Counted from the stretch's first letter, positions 2,688 through 59,245 are shown. The stretch is DNA of 64,000 nucleotides from Actinomycetota bacterium (GCA_018821365.1 JAHJML010000174.1:10067-74066), one strand, 5' to 3'. Program-made: numbers and translations. Notes: generated by a model not told the origin, from the letters alone.

Positions 2688-3201
2688 CGGAGGTCGAGGA
2701 GCGGTAGCCGGACGGGGGTAGCCGGACCTGCTCGAAGGTCACGAACGCCCCCGGGTTCACGCTGTAGACGATCTGGAGAACCTTCTTCAGTTGGCGCCTC
2801 GGCACCACGCAGAGAGCGAGGCGGACGTCGCCCTGGAGTCCCTCCCCGTTGAGGACCGTGACGGCGAAGCCTTGCTCCCTGAGCGCCGGCGCCGACTGGG
2901 GGGATTCCACCGGCGCCACGATGCGGACGATCTTGGTGCCCATCGCCAGCCATCCCTCGATGGTCACGCCGAGGTAGGTCCCGGCCCCGAATCCGGCGGC
3001 AAACCCCACCATCAACACCGGGTCGTCGAGGTTCTTGAGGACCTGGCTGACCGCGAAGACCCACGTCAAGGACTCGACGAAGCCGACCAACCCGGCCTTC
3101 CACCCGTTGCCCCTGGTCAATAGGACGATCCGGATCGTGCCGAGCGACACGTCGACGAGTCGCAGGCCGAAGATCATGAGAGCGGAGAGGAAGACATCCA
3201 T
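2677..3201 (-). CDS. DUF2179/UPF0316-family small membrane protein
   Basis: 174 aa with two N-terminal TM helices and a C-terminal domain resembling DUF2179. Convergent with the MFS gene and overlaps it by 11 nt. Confidence 0.5.
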   Translation of the reverse strand: MDVFLSALMIFGLRLVDVSLGTIRIVLLTRGNGWKAGLVGFVESLTWVFAVSQVLKNLDDPVLMVGFAAGFGAGTYLGVTIEGWLAMGTKIVRIVAPVESPQSAPALREQGFAVTVLNGEGLQGDVRLALCVVPRRQLKKVLQIVYSVNPGAFVTFEQVRLPPSGYRSSTSVRK

Positions 3202-3399: not shown

Positions 3400-5440
<2,041 letters not shown>

Positions 5441-5842: not shown

Positions 5843-6657
5843 CCGATAGCGACGACATCCGCCGCCGGGCCCTCGAGGAGCGGGCGCGGCTCGCCCAACA
5901 GGACATCGAAGACCTGCGGCGCCAGGTCGACGAAGGCGAACTGGAGGAGGCCGATGCTGCCGCGCTCGAGGAGCGCTACCGGTCGGACCTCGATGCCGCC
6001 CGCACGAGCCTGGCCGGCATGCCGAAGCCCCGCAAGAGCGCTCCTCCCGCCACGGCGCCCAGCGCCGCCGGCGGAGCCACCGCCGCCGGCAAACCGAACC
6101 GCATCCCTCTGATCGTCGTCATCTCCGCCGCCGCCATGGTGGTGTTGACCATCGCCATCGTGGTGATGGCCACCAGCGGCAACGACGCCGAGACCACGAC
6201 CGACTCCGCGACGCCTCAGGCCGCAACCGGATCGCTGGCGGAGATGGAGGCGGCGGTCGCTTCCCAGCCGGACAACAACACCATGCGGCTGGCCCTGGCG
6301 GGCCTGTACTTCGAATCCGGCGACTACATGAACGCCATGAACCACTACTCGAGCGTGACCGCCAACGACCCGACGCCCCAGGACGCTGCGGTCGCCAACG
6401 CCAGGATCGGTTGGATGGCCTGGGCGGCGCTCGATGACCCGGAGACCGCGCTGTCGTTCCTTGATGCGGCGATCGCGCTCGACCCCACCTACGGCGAGGC
6501 GATCCTGTGGAAGGCCGTCGTGCTCCTCTACGGGATGGACGATGGAGCTGCGGCCGCCCCTCTCTTGGAGCAGGTGCTGGCCTTCCCGGACCTGCCCGAG
6601 GAGCTCAGGCCGGACATCCAGTCCATGCTCGACGAGGCCCGAGGAGGCGGCCAATGA
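5839..6657 (+). CDS. CcmI/CycH-like TPR protein (putative apocytochrome chaperone)
   Basis: ATG overlaps the ccmH stop (ATGA). Acidic coiled-coil N-terminus, one TM (IPLIVVISAAAMVVLTIAIVVMA), then TPR-like helical repeats (LALAGLYFESGDYMNAMNHY...). Placed between ccmH and ccmG. Confidence 0.45.
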   Translation: MTDSDDIRRRALEERARLAQQDIEDLRRQVDEGELEEADAAALEERYRSDLDAARTSLAGMPKPRKSAPPATAPSAAGGATAAGKPNRIPLIVVISAAAMVVLTIAIVVMATSGNDAETTTDSATPQAATGSLAEMEAAVASQPDNNTMRLALAGLYFESGDYMNAMNHYSSVTANDPTPQDAAVANARIGWMAWAALDDPETALSFLDAAIALDPTYGEAILWKAVVLLYGMDDGAAAAPLLEQVLAFPDLPEELRPDIQSMLDEARGGGQ

Positions 6658-8456: not shown

Positions 8457-9888
8457 TCGCTACCGCAGGTTCAACCTCTCGGATCGCCTCGAGCACGTTG
8501 CCCAGTTGACCGCCTTCACCGCACTGGCGGTCACCGGCTTGGTGCAGCGCTACTCGGAGGCCTGGCTGTCGCGGCGCCTCATCGACCTGCTTGGTGGCAT
8601 CGAGGCCGTCCGGATCATCCACCGAATCTTCGCCACGATCCTGATGGTGGCCGTCGTCTACCACCTGGGTGCGATCGGCTACCGCAAGTTCGTGCAGCGC
8701 CGCCCCAGGGAGATGCTCCCCACCAGCGCCGACATCCGGGCGGCCGCTCATTCGATGCGGTACCTGGCCGGCCGCGAGGCCGCCCCGCCTCTTCAGGGCC
8801 GTTTCACCTGGGAGGAGAAGGTCGAGTACTTCGCCCTCGTCTGGGGGACGTTCGTGATGATCGTGAGCGGTTTCCTGCTGTGGAACCCGATCGCCACCTC
8901 CAGGCTCCTCCCCGGGCAGTTCGTCCCGGCCGCCAAGGTGTTCCACAGCGGAGAAGCCCTGCTGGCCGTGCTGGCGGTGATCGTGTGGCACATGTACCAC
9001 GTCCACATCAGGCGCTTCAACACCTCGATGTTCACCGGATACATGAGCCGCCGGGACATGGCCCACGAGCACGCCCTGGAACTCGAGGCGATCGAAGCGG
9101 GCACCGCCTTCACGCCCCCGACCGACGATGCGTCTCGCCGCCGGGCCAAGATCTATCTGCCCGCCATCACCGGCGTGGCCGCCATCTTGCTGGGCGGCAT
9201 CTACCTGTTCGTCACCTTCGAGAACACCGCCATCGCCACCATCGATCCCCCCGAGCAGGTGGCCATCTATGCGCCGGTCGAGACCACCGGGACCACCGGG
9301 GCCACCGTGGTGACCACCACGACCCTCCCGGGTGCGACGACATCGACCACGACTCCGCTGGGAGCGTGGGAGGACACCATCGAGGCGATCTTCCGCACCC
9401 AGCGCTGCACGGATTGCCACGGCAACACCATGGCGCTGGGCGGCGTCGACCTCGCCACCTACGCTGGGGTGCTGGCCGTGGTCACTCCCGGTGATCCCGA
9501 CCGGAGCCCCCTGATCGTGCTGCAGGAGAAGGGGGCCCACCCGACGGTCCTCGACGACGGGCAACTGGCGCAGGTGCGGGCTTGGATCGCCGCCGGCGCC
9601 CTCGAGGCGCTGGGTGGCACTCCCCCGACGGGGGTGCCCGGCGGTGCGCCCGGTTGGGAAGACCCGATCTCCGGCTTGCTCGCTTCGTGCGGCTCGTGCC
9701 ACGGCGCTGCCAATCCGGCGGCGGGGCTCGACCTGACCAGCTACGAGGCTGCTCTCGCGGTGATCACTCCCGGGGACCCGGACGCCTCACGGCTCTACGT
9801 GGTCCAGGCCGCCGGGGGCCACCCGGGGCAGCTCAGCGAGGCCGACCTGGCCGTCCTCAGGGAGTGGATCGCGGCAGGCGCCCCGTAG
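8449..9888 (+). CDS. dihaem b-type membrane cytochrome (HydC/FdnI / Ni-Fe hydrogenase cytochrome-b family) fused to two c-haem domains of PSCyt1 type
   Basis: GTG start overlaps the upstream stop (GTGGCTGA). Four or five TM helices with His pairs (RIIHRIF, HMYHVH). A Thr-rich linker follows, then CTDCHGNTMALGGVDLATY... and CGSCHGAANPAAGLDLTSY..., i.e. CxxCHG-(x)n-GLDL[TS]SY modules. Confidence 0.8.
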   Translation: MADRYRRFNLSDRLEHVAQLTAFTALAVTGLVQRYSEAWLSRRLIDLLGGIEAVRIIHRIFATILMVAVVYHLGAIGYRKFVQRRPREMLPTSADIRAAAHSMRYLAGREAAPPLQGRFTWEEKVEYFALVWGTFVMIVSGFLLWNPIATSRLLPGQFVPAAKVFHSGEALLAVLAVIVWHMYHVHIRRFNTSMFTGYMSRRDMAHEHALELEAIEAGTAFTPPTDDASRRRAKIYLPAITGVAAILLGGIYLFVTFENTAIATIDPPEQVAIYAPVETTGTTGATVVTTTTLPGATTSTTTPLGAWEDTIEAIFRTQRCTDCHGNTMALGGVDLATYAGVLAVVTPGDPDRSPLIVLQEKGAHPTVLDDGQLAQVRAWIAAGALEALGGTPPTGVPGGAPGWEDPISGLLASCGSCHGAANPAAGLDLTSYEAALAVITPGDPDASRLYVVQAAGGHPGQLSEADLAVLREWIAAGAP

Positions 9889-27152: not shown

Positions 27153-27155
27153 CGT

Positions 27156-27241
27156 GTCGGAGGGGGGACTCGAACCCCCACGCCCGTTATTAGGGCACTA
27201 GGCCCTCAACCTAGCGCGTCTACCAATTCCGCCACTCCGAC
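27156..27241 (-). tRNA. tRNA-Leu (anticodon GAG), type II with long variable arm
   Basis: Reverse complement reads GTCGGAGTGGCGGAATTGGTAGACGCGCTAGGTTGAGGGCCTAG...GGGGGTTCGAGTCCCCCCTCCGACA. Anticodon loop TTGAGGG; GTTCGAGTCC T-loop. Confidence 0.85.
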
Positions 27242-53039: not shown

Positions 53040-55667
53040 TCAGCCCTTGGCGTCCCCCAGCGTGCGCCCGGTGGCGATATCGACCAGCAGCGGGACCTCG
53101 AGGACCGAAACCCCCTCCATGACCTCCCTGACCAGGGCCTCGGCCCGCTCCATCTCCCCCTCCGGCACCTCGAAAACCAGTTCGTCGTGCACCTGCAGCA
53201 GCATGGCGGTTGCCATCCACTCCCCGGTCAGTCTGACATCGAGTTCGATCATCGCCTGCTTGATGATGTCGGCGGCGGCTCCCTGGATCGGGGCGTTGAG
53301 CGCCATCCGCTCGCCGGCCTGCCGAATCCGGTAGTTGCCGGAGGCCAGTTCGGGCAGGTAGCGGCGCCGCCCCATCAGGGTGGTGGTGTAGCCGTCGTGA
53401 CGGGCTCGCTCCACGATCCCCTCCATGAACGCCTGCACCTGGGGGAACTGGGCGAAGTAGGCGTCCATGTGCGCCTGGGCCTCCTCGGTCGAGATCTCGA
53501 GGCGCTGGGCCAGGCCGTAGGCCTCCATCCCGTACAACAGGCCGAAGTTGATGGTCTTGGCCCGCCGCCGCAGATCGGGATCGACCGCCTCCGGATCGGC
53601 CCCGAACACCCGGGCCGCAGTGGCGGAGTGGATGTCCCCGCCGGTTCGGAAGGCTTCGAGCAGCCCGGGGTCCCCGCTGAGGTGCGCCAGTATCCGCAAC
53701 TCGATCTGGCTGTAGTCGGCGACCAGGAACCGGTGGCCCTCGTCGGCGACGAAGGCCCGGCGGATGGTCCGCCCTTCCTCGGTGCGGATCGGGATGTTCT
53801 GCATGTTGGGCCGTTCGCTCGACAGCCGGCCGGTCGCCGCCCCGGTCTGGTTGAACACGCAGTGGATCCGGCCGTCCCGGCCGATCAAGGGAATCAGTCC
53901 GTCGACATAGGTAGAGCGCAGTTTCTCGAGCGCCCGGTACTCGAGAAGGTGATCGACCACCGGGTGCTCCGATGCGAGCTTCTGGAGAACCGACGCATCC
54001 GTGGAGGGTGCTCCCTTGGGGGTCTTCTTGAGGACCGGGAGCGCCAGTTTGTCGTAGAGGATCTCTCTCAACTGCAGGCTCGAGTTGATGTTGAAGGGCT
54101 CGCCGGCGGCCTGGTAGATCCGGGCTTCCAGCCCGGCGAGGCGATCCCGCAGGCTCTCCCCCAGTTCTACCAGGTACTGGCGGTCGACCCCGATCCCGGC
54201 TTCCTCCATCCGGGCCAGCACCCGCACCAGCGGAAGCTCCAACTCACGCAAGACCGTGGCACCGCCCCTGGCCTCCAGTTGCTCGGTGAGCGGCTCCACC
54301 AGGCGGGCCACCGCCGTCGCCCTGCGGGCGGCCCCCTCCAGGTCCGGCCCCGCGCCCCCGAAGTCCAGCGTCCCCTGAGCGCCCCCCGCCTTCTGGTCGG
54401 CCGACGGGCCGATCTCCAACCCCAGCACCGTCCCCGCCAGTTCGGCCAGATCGGGGGCCCGCTCGGCCGGGTTGATGACGTACCCGGCCAGCGAGGTGTC
54501 GAACTCCAGGCCGTCGAAGTCCAGGTCCATCTCGAACAGCGCCCGTACCAGTGGCTTGGCATCGTGGAGGATCTTGGGGACTGCCGGGTCGGCGAACGCC
54601 GCCTCGAGCGGTCCGAAGTGCTCGGCCGGGACGAAGGAAGCCTCTCCTTCGTCCCCTGCGATCATCACCCCGATCAGGGCCTCGTGGTCCCACACCGGCT
54701 CCATGACCAGGGGGCCGGCCGCCAACTCGGCGAGCCGCCGAGGGTCGCGGACCGTGGCGACCTCGACGTCGATCGCCTCGTCCGCCTGTGGCGCCCCGGC
54801 CCCGCCGATCTCCTGGAGCCGCTGCCACAAGGTCTTGAAGGCCAGGCCGTTGAAGACCTCACGGACTTGGGCGGCGTCCCATTCCTCGAGGCGGAAGGAC
54901 TCGATATCGTCGTCCAGCGGCACCGAGTCGACCAGGTAGGTGAGGCGGCGGTTGAGGAACACCTGCTCCCTGGCCGCCTCCAGGCTCTCGCGGAGGCGGG
55001 GGGTCTGGTCCTCGAGATGCTCGTAGATCCCGTCGAGATCGCCGTACTCGGACACCAGTTTGGTGGCGGTCTTCTCTCCCACCCCGGGCACCCCGGGCAG
55101 GTTGTCGCTGGAGTCTCCCCGCAGCGCCGCATAGTCGGGGTACTGGTCGGGCCGAATGCCGTACTTCTTCTGGATGTAGGCGGCATCGGCGGCGACGTTG
55201 TCGCTGATCCCCCGCAGGGTGTAGATCACGGTGACCCGGTCGTCGATCAGTTGGAAGGCATCCCGGTCGCCGGTCACCACCAGCACGTCCCACCCCGCCT
55301 CGGCCGCCCGCTTCGCCAGGGTGCAGATGATGTCGTCGGCCTCGTACCCGGGAGCCTGCAGTTGGGCGAACCGCAGTGCGTCGGCCACCTCCCGGATCAG
55401 CGGGACCTGGCTGCGGAACAGATCGGGGGCCGCCCTCCGGTTGGCCTTGTACTCCTCGAAGGCTTCGCTGCGGAAGGTGGCCTCCGGGGTGTCCCAGGCG
55501 ACCGCCAGCGCGTCCGGGTGCTCGTCCCCGAGCAGTTTGATCACCATGGAGGTGAACCCGAAGACCGCATTGGTCACCTGGCCCGCTGGCGTCGCCAGAT
55601 CGGTCGGCAGGGCGTAGAACGCCCGATAGGCGAGGCTGTATCCGTCGAGGAGGGCGAGCGTCGGCAT
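53040..55667 (-). CDS. polA: DNA polymerase I
   Basis: 875 aa: 5-3 exonuclease N-terminus (MPTLALLDGYSLAYRAFYAL), polymerase motifs (RRRAKTINFGLLYG..., QVHDELVFE). Confidence 0.9.
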   Translation of the reverse strand: MPTLALLDGYSLAYRAFYALPTDLATPAGQVTNAVFGFTSMVIKLLGDEHPDALAVAWDTPEATFRSEAFEEYKANRRAAPDLFRSQVPLIREVADALRFAQLQAPGYEADDIICTLAKRAAEAGWDVLVVTGDRDAFQLIDDRVTVIYTLRGISDNVAADAAYIQKKYGIRPDQYPDYAALRGDSSDNLPGVPGVGEKTATKLVSEYGDLDGIYEHLEDQTPRLRESLEAAREQVFLNRRLTYLVDSVPLDDDIESFRLEEWDAAQVREVFNGLAFKTLWQRLQEIGGAGAPQADEAIDVEVATVRDPRRLAELAAGPLVMEPVWDHEALIGVMIAGDEGEASFVPAEHFGPLEAAFADPAVPKILHDAKPLVRALFEMDLDFDGLEFDTSLAGYVINPAERAPDLAELAGTVLGLEIGPSADQKAGGAQGTLDFGGAGPDLEGAARRATAVARLVEPLTEQLEARGGATVLRELELPLVRVLARMEEAGIGVDRQYLVELGESLRDRLAGLEARIYQAAGEPFNINSSLQLREILYDKLALPVLKKTPKGAPSTDASVLQKLASEHPVVDHLLEYRALEKLRSTYVDGLIPLIGRDGRIHCVFNQTGAATGRLSSERPNMQNIPIRTEEGRTIRRAFVADEGHRFLVADYSQIELRILAHLSGDPGLLEAFRTGGDIHSATAARVFGADPEAVDPDLRRRAKTINFGLLYGMEAYGLAQRLEISTEEAQAHMDAYFAQFPQVQAFMEGIVERARHDGYTTTLMGRRRYLPELASGNYRIRQAGERMALNAPIQGAAADIIKQAMIELDVRLTGEWMATAMLLQVHDELVFEVPEGEMERAEALVREVMEGVSVLEVPLLVDIATGRTLGDAKG

Positions 55668-55697: not shown

Positions 55698-55970
55698 TCA
55701 CCCGAGCCGTTCGAGCAGGCGCTCCCGCTTCGCCTCCAGGCGGGCGCGCCTCGACTGCAGGCCGGCCAGCGTCGTACGGAACCGGGCGACATCGCCGGCC
55801 GTCATCCGGGCGTCGTCCCGCTCCAGTGGCCCGCCCACCGCAGCATCCCGGCGGGCGTCGTCGTCGAGGTGCTCCAGCATCCCCAGTTCGCCCTCGGTGA
55901 GCCGCTCCTCGGCCCGCAGCCGATCGATCTCCTCGTTGAGGCGGAACAGGCGATCGTGGATGCGGCTCAT
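55698..55970 (-). CDS. hypothetical small coiled-coil protein
   Basis: MSRIHDRLFRLNEEIDRLRAEERLTEGELGMLEHL...; start placed at ATG 55968-55970 so it does not overlap the tRNA. No recognisable family. Confidence 0.3.
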   Translation of the reverse strand: MSRIHDRLFRLNEEIDRLRAEERLTEGELGMLEHLDDDARRDAAVGGPLERDDARMTAGDVARFRTTLAGLQSRRARLEAKRERLLERLG

Positions 55971-56003
55971 GGTGGTGCCCGGCGCGGATATCATCCTGGC
56001 TGC

Positions 56004-56089
56004 GCCGGGATGGCGGAATGGTAGACGCGACGGACTCAAAATCCGTTGAGCTCACGCTCGTGGGGGTTCGACTCCCCCTCCCGGTACCA
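56004..56089 (+). tRNA. tRNA-Leu (anticodon CAA), type II, CCA encoded
   Basis: GCCGGGATGGCGGAATGGTAGACGCGACGGACTCAAAATCCGTTGAGCTCACGCTCGTGGGGGTTCGACTCCCCCTCCCGGTACCA. Anticodon loop CTCAAAA. Confidence 0.85.
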
Positions 56090-56430
56090 GCGGGGCGCGG
56101 CTTGGTGTTACTGCAGATGCTTCGACGCGGTTGGCGCTCCGGAAATGGAGGGTTCCCGCGTCGGAGCGGCTCCAAGTACCAACCGGTCCGCCCCACGGCA
56201 AGGGGGTAGGGTTCGACTCCCCCTCCCGGTACCAGCGGGGCGCGGCTTGGTGTTACTGCAGATGCTTCGACGCGGTTGGCGCTCCTGAAATGGAGGGTTC
56301 CCGCGTCGGGCTGGCTCCAAGTACCAACCGGTCCGCCCCACAGCAAGGGGGTCGGGTTCGAGTCCCCCTCCCGGTACTAGCGGGGCGCCGCTTGGTGCCA
56401 CTGAAGGTTCTTGCACGCGATTGACCGTCA
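56090..56430 (+). repeat. tandem array of two 145-nt units plus a diverged partial third; each unit ends in a 26-nt copy of the tRNA-Leu(CAA) 3-prime end (att-like core)
   Basis: Unit 1 56090-56234 and unit 2 56235-56379 are about 95% identical. Both end ...GGGTTCGA(C/G)TCCCCCTCCCGGTAC(C/T)A. Unit 3 diverges after about 25 nt. Confidence 0.75.
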
Positions 56431-56550
56431 CCCGGATCGCGATGCTCCGTCAGGCGGTGGCGATCGTGCTCCTGCTCGTGGTGCGCTCGATCATGGGGAG
56501 GCGGCGCAAGGCCTGAGGGCGAGGCACGGCCGCTTTCAGCCGACCTCGCT

Positions 56551-57084
56551 ATGCTTCGGTTTCGAAGGGTAGACCTGATGTCGCCGAGGCGGCTCATTGT
56601 CGGGATCGTTGCCCTGCTCGTGTCAGGGTGCGGGGCTGCCGCTCAACCCCAGCCCGGGGTCCGCTTCGTGGCAATACTGCCCGTTCCTGTCGACCAGGCG
56701 TCGCGGGCGGTGCTCACCTTCGACATCTCCGATGACGGCAGGCTCATCGAGTACCTGCTCCTCGATCTCACCGATCTCGAATGTGCCACCGTTGGCGCCG
56801 AGCGCTCGAACTTCGTGCAACTCGTCGACGCACCGATCGAGGCCGGACGGTTCACCGTTGAGAGCTCGGGCGTCGGGGTGCTCAGCGGACAATTCGTGTC
56901 CCCGACCCATGCCCGCGGCGAGGTGACGCTGCACATCGACACGCTCGGGGCGCTCACCAACTTCATCATCCACGACCCGGACGCCTCGTGCGACCTGGGC
57001 ACCTACCAATGGGAGGCCGAGGCTGCCGGCGAGGCGCCGTCGATGCCGACGGCGCCCTCCCTGCCCTCCGAGGTCGTGCCGTAG
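56551..57084 (+). CDS. hypothetical lipoprotein
   Basis: Lipobox LLVSGCGAAAQ. Likely start at the internal ATG approx 56578. Confidence 0.45.
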   Translation: MLRFRRVDLMSPRRLIVGIVALLVSGCGAAAQPQPGVRFVAILPVPVDQASRAVLTFDISDDGRLIEYLLLDLTDLECATVGAERSNFVQLVDAPIEAGRFTVESSGVGVLSGQFVSPTHARGEVTLHIDTLGALTNFIIHDPDASCDLGTYQWEAEAAGEAPSMPTAPSLPSEVVP

Positions 57085-57507
57085 GGCGTCGCCGGTGCCC
57101 GGGCTACCTCTTCACACACATGTCGTCGGCAGAGCACCACCGCCAGTGGAACGGTGCCACGATGCCCCGGTCAGTTCCTTTCTCGAAGGAGACACAGATG
57201 ATCACCCGGTCGAGTCCCAGATTGGCGATTCCCCGTTGACCAGCGGGCAGATCACGGAAGCATCCTGCGTGGCCACCGTAGAACGTGGCGCTCGGCGGTC
57301 TCGTCACGGTTCCTCCGGCCGAGGACGCACGGTCGACGACTCGGTCGACTTCGTCGCTTGAGCGCACGTTGTGAGCGAGCGCCAGGGGTCCCGAGGGGGC
57401 GTTGATGTGACCATCCCCTGGGCCCCCCTGGGCCAGCGTGCAGGAAGGTCATCGGAGGTCGAGAGCACACCGGAAGCTCTCATCTGAGTCTGTCCGGGGA
57501 GGGCGTG

Positions 57508-58053
57508 TCAGGCTGGCCGCAGTGTCACCTCCCAGCTGCAGTTGTCCACGTACTCTGAGGAAGGTCCAGTGGGTTCAGTGACTAGCCGAAACTCATCGGA
57601 AGGCAAGACGTCGGACACCAGCTCTTGCGTGTCGGACACGCTGCCGGGGTCATCAGGGGCGGAGTAGGTGAGCCACCAGTAGACGTCCTCAGGGCCGAAG
57701 GCACTGCTCTTCTCAATCCTGACAACCATTGCGCACGAGCCGTCGTCGATGTAGCTGGCGGTCGCCTCGACGATGTAGCGGTTGGATGGCCCCGGTAGGG
57801 GGAAGGGTTCTGAGGTGAAGGCACCGGTGCCGGAGAGGTGCACGGCTCCCTCCGCAAGGGTGGTGGTGCCCAGCGTGGTCGTTGTAGGTGGTGGTTCAGT
57901 TGTGGTTGTGGGCTGTGTTTCGGTCGTGGTCGCCTGACTACCGGTGGTGATCGAGGTGGATGCCCCAGTGGTAGTGAGGGTGCCCCCGTCGTCGCCACAG
58001 GCAGTGAGCATGAGAGACACCAGTGTGAGGACGAGGGCCGCTCGGGTCCGCAT
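57508..58053 (-). CDS. hypothetical lipoprotein with Thr-rich linker
   Basis: Lipobox LMLTACGDD followed by T-rich low complexity, then a globular domain. Lower GC than the window average. Confidence 0.5.
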   Translation of the reverse strand: MRTRAALVLTLVSLMLTACGDDGGTLTTTGASTSITTGSQATTTETQPTTTTEPPPTTTTLGTTTLAEGAVHLSGTGAFTSEPFPLPGPSNRYIVEATASYIDDGSCAMVVRIEKSSAFGPEDVYWWLTYSAPDDPGSVSDTQELVSDVLPSDEFRLVTEPTGPSSEYVDNCSWEVTLRPA

Positions 58054-58274
58054 GTCAAGCCTCCCCCTGGCGTTGTGATAGCAGGATACCCGGCGTGTGG
58101 TCTTCTTTGACTTGTCCGGACAAACGCGACTCGCCGCGGTGAACGGTCAAGCTGCCCCGTCAGCCGAGGGTGAGCGGCAGCGAGAAGTCGACTCTGGTGA
58201 AGTGTCCGCAGGGATCCTGAGGGACCGTTTCACGTACCCCGTCTGAGGATCAGTCTGAACCACCGGCCCGGCAG

Positions 58275-58706
58275 GTGGAGTTGGAGTACCTTGAGGGAGA
58301 GCAATTGGAGGTGTGTGTCACGCCCAAGACATGGTCGGCCATACTGATTGGGCTCGGTGTCACGGTTCTCACCTTCGTGATCCTTAGAGCATTCAGCGAC
58401 GACTTCTTGAGGGTGAGAGACGGCGGTAACTTCCGCCTCAGCCTTGTCTGGATGGTGATCCTGGGGTTTGGTATCGGTGGCGCGGCGCTGGCAGGAGTGA
58501 GGTATCACCCGCTCGTCGCGGCCGTCCCGGCAGTCCTCCTATTGGCCCTCTACGTTCCGGTCTTCAAGGATCTGATGGCTCCGAGTTGGTACCCGGAGTG
58601 GGTCAGGGCTGGGGTGTTGCCCGCGTTCAGTCCGGTGCCGTTCACGATCATTGGCGTGCTCGGCTTTTCGAGCCTGTGGTCGGCCTGGAATCGATGGCGC
58701 GACTGA
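58275..58706 (+). CDS. hypothetical four-TM membrane protein
   Basis: Hydrophobic helices and coherent lower-GC codon usage. Confidence 0.4.
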   Translation: MELEYLEGEQLEVCVTPKTWSAILIGLGVTVLTFVILRAFSDDFLRVRDGGNFRLSLVWMVILGFGIGGAALAGVRYHPLVAAVPAVLLLALYVPVFKDLMAPSWYPEWVRAGVLPAFSPVPFTIIGVLGFSSLWSAWNRWRD

Positions 58707-59245
58707 TGCCGTGCCAGCATCACGTCATCTGGGTCCTCCATTCCTGAAGGCAGCGGAAGCGGTCGTCTTACGGGGGTCGTCAGGGTCCGAGGACCACCGC
58801 CGTCCCCTCGGCCGGCGTGCCCTTACCAGATGGGTGAGAGGCTGAATCGAATTGCAGTGAACTTCTGACAGAGGTGCCGAGGGGCCCCTGACCCAACAGC
58901 ACCCTGGGGTGACGATTCCTCATCAGCTGCCCGCGCTGGTGAGAAGCGTCAGAGAGTCCGGCCCCCGGTCCTCCGAGCCACCCCCCACCTCCAGGCCGCA
59001 CTGCAATCCGCAGCGGGCGGTGCAACCAGTGGCCAAAGCCGGGGCCGACTTGCCTCCTGGTTGGCGATCGATGCTTGTTGAGCCCCAGAGGGGAGCCGCT
59101 CCGCCACTCGCGGCGGCCGACGTCACCTGCTCGGCCTATCGGCGTAGGGTGTGGGGATAGAAGATCTGGGGCCTGCTGCCCTGAGGCTTCCAAGCAGTTG
59201 GTTCCCGGATTGCAGCCAGCATCAGTGATGCGAAGGGAGAGCGAA

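Follow-up and report, generated by a model that had tools for sequence, protein, structure and literature searches.

The gene for tRNA-Leu(CAA), the leucine transfer RNA (tRNA) with anticodon CAA, is followed at once by a tandem array of 145-nucleotide (nt) units, each closed by a copy of that tRNA's 3' end, in a stretch of DNA of 64,000 nt from an Actinomycetota bacterium (GCA_018821365.1 JAHJML010000174.1:10067-74066; the whole stretch is referred to here as the window). On balance we favor the explanation that this array is a tandemly duplicated native 3' trailer module of tRNA-Leu(CAA), which would be inherited within a small clade of Acidimicrobiia, vary in copy number by unequal recombination and probably be co-transcribed with the tRNA. 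The locus is organized as follows:

55989-55994, plus strand: -10-like hexamer TATCAT, some 10 nt ahead of the tRNA's mature 5' end
56004-56089, plus strand: tRNA-Leu(CAA), class II, CCA encoded (ARAGORN; Rfam RF00005, 59.7 bits)
56064-56089, plus strand: core copy 0, inside the tRNA, 26-mer GGGTTCGACTCCCCCTCCCGGTACCA
56090-56234, plus strand: unit 1 (U1), 145 nt, consisting of trailer, structured spacer and core copy
56092-56108, plus strand: 5' strand of the long-range helix of unit 1, starting 2 nt after the tRNA CCA
56146-56159, plus strand: invariant block TGGAGGGTTCCCGC of unit 1, containing GGGTTC, the same six bases as the T-stem/T-loop junction
56150-56173, plus strand: local hairpin GGG..CCGC-loop-GCGG..TCC, overlapping the block
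56181-56194, plus strand: 3' strand of the long-range helix of unit 1
56209-56234, plus strand: core copy 1, 26/26 identical to the tRNA 3' end
56235-56379, plus strand: unit 2 (U2), 145 nt, differing from U1 at 8 positions, with the local hairpin broken (AGC to GCT)
56291-56304, plus strand: invariant block of unit 2
56354-56379, plus strand: core copy 2, 24/26, with a T-loop change of C to G (GAGT) and CCA changed to CTA (ACTA for ACCA)
56380-56486, plus strand: partial or decayed third unit, of which 35/45 first bases (78%) match the unit start before the sequence diverges

ARAGORN, Rfam and Tandem Repeats Finder (array at 56064-56397, period 145, 2.3 copies, 95% matches) agree on this arrangement, which had been recognized in a first-pass annotation made from the sequence of the window: a tRNA-Leu(CAA), tandem 145-nt units and the diverged start of a third. 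The same annotation let every unit end in an exact 26-mer, which is true of U1 but not of U2, where the copy carries two changes. The 26-mer GGGTTCGACTCCCCCTCCCGGTACCA, the core, spans the last 3 nt of the T-stem 5' strand, the T loop, the T-stem 3' strand, the acceptor 3' strand, the discriminator and CCA, and occurs at 56064 (in the tRNA), 56209 (exact) and 56354 (2 mismatches); in shuffled sequence no match to it was found (0 in 100 shuffles). The GAGT T-loop allele of core copy 2 equals that in the tRNA genes of two relatives, L091 and L001. Outside the core U1 and U2 are 96% identical. The unit body is non-coding and 119 nt long, with trailer, block and AGTACCAA as its named parts. A covariance model (R1) built from seven units scores U1 with 139 bits and gives a weak match of 16.5 bits (E 0.14) for the third unit, which is probably the ancestral trailer.

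Relatives were located with polA, the conserved neighbor of the tRNA gene, as anchor. The polA relatives place the window in the Acidimicrobiia, with the closest genomes being 81-88% identical in protein, and judged by this gene the source organism is an uncultivated Acidimicrobiia bacterium. Homologous units follow tRNA-Leu(CAA) in four other species:

L002 (polA 82%): one intact unit and one decayed unit after the tRNA
L085/L087 (polA 86%): units 146 and 204 nt long, containing nested decayed cores
L093 (polA 81%): two units and the start of a third
L094 (polA 81%): unit 1, cut by the contig end after 53 nt

The comparison with related strains that the first-pass annotation had suggested thereby yields homologous arrays in four species. 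In L085 the array abuts the neighboring gene orf145 directly without an island; the annotation had named missing island-like content in relatives with identical repeats as speaking against its reading, and L085 answers to this in spirit only, its units being homologous at about 60% identity and not identical. Two more distant genomes, L007 and L018, carry units of unrelated sequence (104, 204 and 168 nt) that follow the same design at the same tRNA. Across genomes the units measure 104-204 nt and have no coding capacity. When all sequences gathered are considered, a 3'-end copy is present within 500 nt at 7/43 tRNA-Leu(CAA) loci vs 1/143 other tRNAs, and model R1, run over 44 sources, detected no full-length units outside the genomes with homologous units. 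Contigs were found to end at or within the tRNA-Leu(CAA) 3' end in L003, L088, L089, L091 and L118 and 53 nt past the tRNA in L094, and contigs from P0007 and P0012 likewise stop at or near the tRNA. Arrays may therefore be commoner than assemblies show, since repeats or strain variants would break the assembly at the tRNA.

Every core, the most distal one included, is followed by a copy of the trailer. Compared with the tRNA's own trailer the agreement is 35/45 in the window, 31/43 in L085, 57/60 in L018, 30/40 in L093 and 26/41 in L002. An integrated element would leave its own arm after the proximal core and the native trailer only distally; the presence of the trailer after every core therefore argues for tandem duplication. 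The direct repeat of the tRNA 3' part does begin at the strand-exchange loop, as a 26-nt core from T-stem position 51 to CCA. Foreign DNA between the cores with a native flank behind the distal core only, as expected of integration, was not what we found, the 119-nt bodies being conserved in relatives. The reading of the 26-mer as an integrase core site in the first-pass annotation thus stands as far as position and size are concerned, which are those of a T-loop class II integrase core, but what lies between the cores is probably not a set of foreign scars. Its suggestion of repeated integration and excision of elements is not supported in view of native-like bodies of 119 nt, the trailer after every core, the lack of an integrase in the regions surveyed below and the array without an island in L085.

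Identity to the tRNA begins at T-stem position 51-54 (G51-T54) in all unit families, i.e. in the window, L002, L085, L093, L007 and L018. With random breakpoints, the chance that three independent families share a 4-nt window in a gene of 85 nt is roughly 0.002. Since the breakpoints coincide in three unrelated families, the T loop appears to be a preferred site of exchange. Class II tyrosine integrases, which target the T loop, cross over at this very place of the tRNA.

The relation between units within and between genomes points to their history. Within-genome identity amounts to 96% in the window vs about 65% in L002 and in L093, while unit 1 of L002 and unit 1 of L093 are 79% identical, with 75% identity at polA fourfold sites between these genomes. 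From these identities it follows that the ancestor of L002 and L093 already possessed two diverged units and that the pair in the window is a recent duplication. At T-loop position 59 the window, L002 and L085 have C, A or T in their tRNAs, and the adjacent cores carry the base of their own tRNA; G is found at this position in the distal core of the window and in both cores of L093. This pattern indicates that cores are homogenized against the tRNA gene, albeit incompletely. Both the differing identities of the unit pairs and the resident T-loop alleles in the cores would be explained by unequal recombination between cores. Unit 1 of L085 is unit 2 shortened by 58 nt, and the junction joins the block to a decayed core, from which we conclude that the block does recombine with cores. 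L086, whose polA protein is that of L085 and L087, carries an IS3-family insertion sequence (IS) with an rve transposase at about 3050-3090; the insertion point (ggttcg|tggagttgaccc) falls exactly within the T loop of the first extra core. L085 and L087 both lack the IS, so that one population is heterogeneous at the array; the difference between L086 and these two is an IS insertion, not an excision.

We propose a module of three parts: the native trailer, a structured spacer (helix, block and hairpin), and a copied tRNA segment that begins at T-stem position 51 and ends with CCA. In the first duplication the T loop of the tRNA would have exchanged unequally with a look-alike site located on the sister copy about 120-145 nt downstream; trailer and spacer would thereby be duplicated, and a new core would arise at the junction. 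A candidate for the look-alike site is the GGGTTC of the block, identical to the T-stem/T-loop junction. This first exchange may have been catalyzed by a T-loop-specific integrase acting in trans or have resulted from slippage at microhomology, and the copy number would later rise and fall via unequal recombination between the 23-26-nt cores. Because a window scan found no terminator-like site between the tRNA and unit 1, the units would be transcribed as the 3' trailer of the tRNA precursor. At the hexamer position GATATCAT, GATAGCAT or GATATGAT is present in the window, L002, L085, L093, L091 and L001, and we infer that the conserved hexamer is a promoter element of the tRNA; a consensus promoter scan makes no call at TATCAT in the window. 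The proximal unit may have a part in termination or in processing of the 3' end; alternatively, it may be set free as a stable RNA, like RtT of E. coli.

Within the unit body the block stands out. Its pattern, TGGA[G/C][G/A]GTTCCCGC, is invariant in 12/14 columns of seven units from four species vs 17% of columns elsewhere in the body, and it occurs only inside units and nowhere else in the window or in the loci of relatives. According to RNAalifold, the first 19 nt behind the tRNA would pair with a segment located about 90 nt downstream in a 13-bp helix that encloses the block, and a small hairpin would overlap the block. In alignment A2 this long-range helix pairs columns 6-22 with 97-110 (13 pairs, 88% of cells paired, 5 pairs changed on both sides). 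In the local hairpin the pair 66/89 is G-C in 3 units, C-G in 3 and broken in 1. Helix and hairpin taken together comprise 20 pairs, with 88.6% of cells paired vs 80% in shuffled and 38-48% in slid controls and with 6 pairs changed on both sides. The covariation of 0.336 was reached in none of 500 shuffles (0.188 shuffled, 0.05-0.15 slid), for a structure derived from the same 7 units of 4 species. The first-pass annotation had drawn a minihelix ACCGG...CCGGT in each unit and considered that the units might recur in related genomes as a conserved structured RNA. They do recur, with a conserved block and some covariation, but the minihelix, which can be drawn in the window, is not kept in the homologous units of relatives.

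Genomes that approach saturation at the fourfold sites of polA (0.47-0.53) have alignable unit bodies (z 7-10). The idea that the unit as a whole is under strong purifying selection was considered and withdrawn, as the intergenic S1-ParA spacer of the same genomes is equally conserved (0.60-0.74, z 7-13); on the present alignments we claim constraint for the 14-nt block alone. Several roles for the block were tried and rejected. Pairing of the block with CCCTCC of the core in the manner of a tRNA-like acceptor stem was predicted when folding the 3' 93 nt alone, and GGACGG variants break it without compensation. Read on the minus strand, the block resembles the -35 element (GGAAC) of an extracytoplasmic function (ECF) sigma factor type, for which no conserved -10 element was seen by eye. 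In the window the units contain Arg-rich open reading frames (ORFs) of 47 and 44 amino acids (aa) starting at the ATG of the block; coding potential was dismissed, since this ATG is CTG in L002 and L093 and the open frames differ between species.

Rfam contains no family matching the units at gathering score or at an E of 10 or less. Phage collections gave one short chance match to the unit and plasmid collections none, and the block-plus-hairpin pattern matched only phage coding sequences in IMG/VR. A metagenome scan for block plus core found no further units, its sole match being a genuine tRNA-Leu(CAA) with an GGTTCCCGC leader.

Several observations weigh against the duplicated trailer module as we describe it. 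A breakpoint fixed at the T loop is also expected from classical integrase scars. The array is absent from L001 (polA 83% identical) and hence dispensable. The invariant block has no explained role, and beyond it the units are no better conserved than the S1-ParA spacer. Covariation was assessed on few units, from which the structure itself had been derived, and the ratio of G-U pairs to A-C cells of only about 15 to 7 leaves the transcribed strand unsettled. The long hairpin predicted for the window (U1 minimum free energy -78.1 kcal/mol, z -3.3) is not kept in relatives, where z ranges from -1.8 to +1.7. Co-transcription of the units with the tRNA is probable but, like any RNA product, deduced from the sequence.

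Two further sequences downstream of this tRNA were noted in relatives. The L001 trailer, which has no array, still resembles the unit start and the CCCGC-loop-GCGG hairpin. L004 carries another tandem repeat 3' of the same tRNA at 9217-9481 (83 nt, 3.2 copies, 85% matches) with the palindrome GGGGCCCCAACCCC and without tRNA-end copies; the palindrome is also present inside unit 2 of L007.

The array lies in a neighborhood whose gene order is class-wide trpA-nadE-(orf145)-tRNA-Leu(CAA)-small ORF-polA. In the window the adjoining features are:

53040-55667, minus strand: polA (DNA polymerase I), ORF of 875 aa, 55-88% identical in relatives, with Pfam 5'-3' exonuclease and DNA_pol_A domains
55698-55970, minus strand: small90, a coiled-coil ORF of 90 aa divergent from the tRNA, kept beside it throughout the Acidimicrobiia (tblastn synteny)
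56490-63619, no strand assigned: lineage-specific segment of about 7.1 kb from the array to orf145, left boundary approximate, absent in L085
63620-64000, minus strand: orf145 homologue, running off the window end (tblastn, 68% identity to orf145 of L085)

No Pfam family matched small90 above cut-off. Relative to polA and the small ORF, L001 (9563-9647) and L017 (9608-9691) carry the tRNA-Leu(CAA) and its -10-like leader in inverted orientation. The second tRNA of the window, tRNA-Leu(GAG) at 27154-27241 on the minus strand, has no copy of its own 3' end nearby.

Many genomes have a gap of 15-94 nt between the tRNA 3' end and nadE, and in others it reaches 1.5 kb, which marks it as a variable spot. 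Homology to L085 resumes at 63619, so that the 7.1 kb between array and orf145 are missing from that genome. The guanine-cytosine (GC) content of this segment is 0.61-0.67 vs 0.65-0.74 upstream, and the downstream DNA described as island-like in the first-pass annotation is indeed a lower-GC, lineage-specific segment. It contains two lipoprotein-like ORFs, a membrane ORF, orphan ORFs, a WD40 protein (60296-62329) and, at its distal edge, a plus-strand ORF (63008-63526) whose C-terminal part matches the ParE toxin (PF05016, E 1.8e-09) and for which no antitoxin partner was identified. None of the ORFs of the segment has a homologue in any relative locus compared. Thr-rich secreted or lipoprotein-like ORFs are located in the variable region 3' of the tRNA in the window (57508-58053, minus strand) and in L018 (8373-9311, minus strand), and lipoprotein-like ORFs are also present there in L007 and L026; among those of the four genomes no homology was detected.

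The first-pass annotation had proposed to look for an integrase and a distal repeat of the 26-nt core. In the range of 56.4-64 kb all ORFs of sizeable length were scanned against Pfam, and no integrase was found. No significant distal core bounds the 7.1-kb segment within the window: the best degenerate cores, at 60024-60049 (plus strand, 18/26, including CCCCTCCCGGCAC) and 61532-61557 (plus strand, 19/26, in the WD40 gene), lie inside ORFs, and matches of 18-19/26 are near chance and occur elsewhere in the window, too. A decayed distal core at 63563-63586 (14/24) was dropped because such matches are common in the window. The 7.1-kb insertion is real, but no tie to the repeats is established.

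The reading put forward in the first-pass annotation is that of stacked attachment (att) site scars. T-loop-targeting elements would have integrated repeatedly and lost their interiors, leaving permuted attP arms behind, with the 7.1-kb segment as the latest, degraded arrival. We consider this unlikely, though it draws on a number of parallels. The core matches a class II att core in position and length: in mycobacteriophage Ms6, whose attP/attB is a class II T-loop site in an actinobacterium, the attP core likewise is an identity block of 26 bases that extends from the T stem across the T loop as far as tRNA-Ala's 3' end (PMC1762012). Three unrelated unit families share their left boundary, and the low-GC, lineage-specific segment with ParE adjoins the array. 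Stacked 3' ends of tRNA or transfer-messenger RNA (tmRNA) at an intact gene beside a hypervariable region are also a feature of tycheposon islands in Prochlorococcus, and partial tRNA scars in islands after repeated integration are documented (bioRxiv 10.1101/2020.12.28.424599). The same likeness holds for the ssrA islands of Dehalococcoides (PMC3146451). Viral contigs hold partial tRNA-Leu(CAA) sequences, beginning at the anticodon loop in L096, L098, L102, L110, L115 and L116 and at the T stem in L097. Finally, in L048 a core copy lies 3.4 kb away from the tRNA, with a Fic/DOC gene in between. The likeness to stacked 3' ends at an intact gene extends to the cis-mobilizable elements (CIMEs) of streptococci, which are flanked by att sites and lack a recombinase.

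The content of the repeats speaks against scars. In contrast to Ms6-type att sites, no integrase or element lies between the repeats, and each core is followed by sequence homologous to the native trailer, as an element arm should not be. Island systems bound kilobases of cargo together with integrase remnants, whereas the repeats described here bound 119 nt of conserved, native-like non-coding DNA, and the array persists without an island in L085. Units of 104-204 nt are non-coding throughout. An integrase was missing both from the window at 56.4-64 kb and from the variable regions of relatives that were checked, part of them by ORF inspection only, and the best distal cores of the 7.1-kb segment (18-19/26) are no better than matches found elsewhere. 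Similarity of units tracks the relatedness of their hosts (L002-L093 0.79 vs 0.75 at fourfold sites), which fits vertical descent, and neither phage and plasmid collections nor viral contigs contain a match to the unit body.

Some of these loci deserve description in their own right. The partial tRNA-Leu(CAA) sequences of the six IMG/VR contigs reach from the anticodon loop to the 3' end and look like class I attP. In L097 (GC 0.64) the sequence at 4748-4770 comprises the T stem to the 3' end only, and the neighboring ORFs tested gave no integrase match. The copy in L048 covers 24 nt of the tRNA 3' end with 2 mismatches (6186-6209) and lies 3.37 kb downstream of the tRNA (9555-9642); no integrase was found in the segment between them, which contains the Fic/DOC-family gene and may be a small degraded island.

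The closest known system is that of the distal repeats of E. coli tyrT/tyrV with RtT (rttR, Rfam RF00391; tpr), where, as in the window, a tRNA is followed at once by tandem units ending in a copy of the tRNA 3' end. We checked this directly in E. coli MG1655 and found three 178-bp units after tyrV and a fourth between tyrT and tyrV. They end in the last 19 nt of tRNA-Tyr (vs 23-26 nt in the Acidimicrobiia), with identity starting in the T loop and the same trailer following each. As a control, RF00391 gave four matches of 133-137 bits in the E. coli stretch, and it had no match in the window units at gathering score or at an E of 10 or less. The two systems differ in the tRNA (Tyr vs Leu-CAA), the phylum, the unit length (178 vs 145) and the core length, and a tpr-like small basic ORF is not conserved among the Acidimicrobiia units. 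RtT is processed to a stable RNA, whereas the Acidimicrobiia array is known here from sequence alone. On this comparison we regard the Acidimicrobiia array as an analogue, not a homologue, of E. coli RtT. A 14-mer, CCCGAAGGGCGAAG, occurs just upstream of the tRNA-end copy in both an E. coli RtT unit (L095) and unit 1 of L007, and in both contexts it looks like a hairpin resembling a variable arm.

The RtT RNA is encoded by one repeat unit of the tyrT operon (PMC3318445, citing Bosl and Kersten 1991). By analogy, the proximal unit might be a functional RNA of a new family that is cut from the tRNA-Leu(CAA) precursor, with the tail mimic and TGGAGGGTTCCCGC needed for its ends or for binding of a factor that recognizes tRNA 3' ends; we think this doubtful. 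If the proximal unit were functional, selection would maintain the array in the Acidimicrobiia clade, and Proteobacteria and Actinomycetota would each have evolved tRNA-tail repeat RNAs on their own.

A related view takes the unit to be first of all a selected structured non-coding RNA or a module for termination or processing, in which the tRNA-end copy is a functional part and the duplications are incidental. The copy might, for instance, mimic a 3' end and thereby set that of the RNA, or bind factors by which tRNA 3' ends are recognized. This we judge to be rather improbable. It would account for the 14-nt block, invariant across species near fourfold saturation, for compensatory changes in helix and hairpin that exceed those of shuffled and slid controls, and for a helix that begins 2 nt after CCA. 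Proximal units are also better kept, the hairpin being broken in U2 of the window and of L093 and the core decayed in U2 of L002, and RtT of E. coli is a processed product of such a unit (PMC3318445, citing Bosl and Kersten 1991). Against it stand the missing Rfam match, an overall fold that is not conserved, the small number of independent sequences and a conservation no higher than that of an ordinary intergenic spacer. L001 lacks the array altogether, the proximal unit of L085 lost the block by the 58-nt deletion, and the pairing between block and core is not compensated in the GGACGG variants.

That the units are decayed tandem copies of whole tRNA-Leu genes, i.e. pseudo-tRNAs of which only the 3' end is still recognizable, is largely refuted and in our opinion very improbable. 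The similarity of a window unit to the 5' part of the tRNA (CCGGAAATGG vs CCGGGATGG) was seen by eye, and a hairpin lies just upstream of each core, at the place of the variable arm. Local alignment of unit bodies to their own tRNA is no better than with shuffled sequence in four species (p 0.32-0.97), though, neither ARAGORN nor the Rfam tRNA model has a match in the units, even at an E of 10 or less, and the T-stem 5' strand is not kept. An artefact of the metagenome assembly is scarcely credible: contigs of relatives do break at or near the tRNA (L003, L088, L089, L091, L118), which is thus hard to assemble, but U1 and U2 differ at 8 positions and homologous arrays are present in independent assemblies of NCBI and JGI samples (L002, L085 and L087 from different samples, L093). 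L085-L089 come from the JGI samples 3300033143-3300033155.

For decades the tyrT/RtT repeats of E. coli have been an isolated curiosity of unclear origin and function. With tRNA-Leu(CAA), the same architecture arose independently at another tRNA, in a phylum that is distant and uncultivated. That all of at least three unrelated families of units break at the T-stem/T-loop junction suggests a general process, in which the T loop is a recombination hot spot seeding the tandem duplication of the 3' flank of the tRNA. Stacks of partial tRNA 3' ends need not mark past integration, and island finders that use displaced tRNA fragments could be misled by them. If the units are processed RNAs, they would constitute a second family of tRNA-tail RNAs and offer a comparative handle on the function of RtT.

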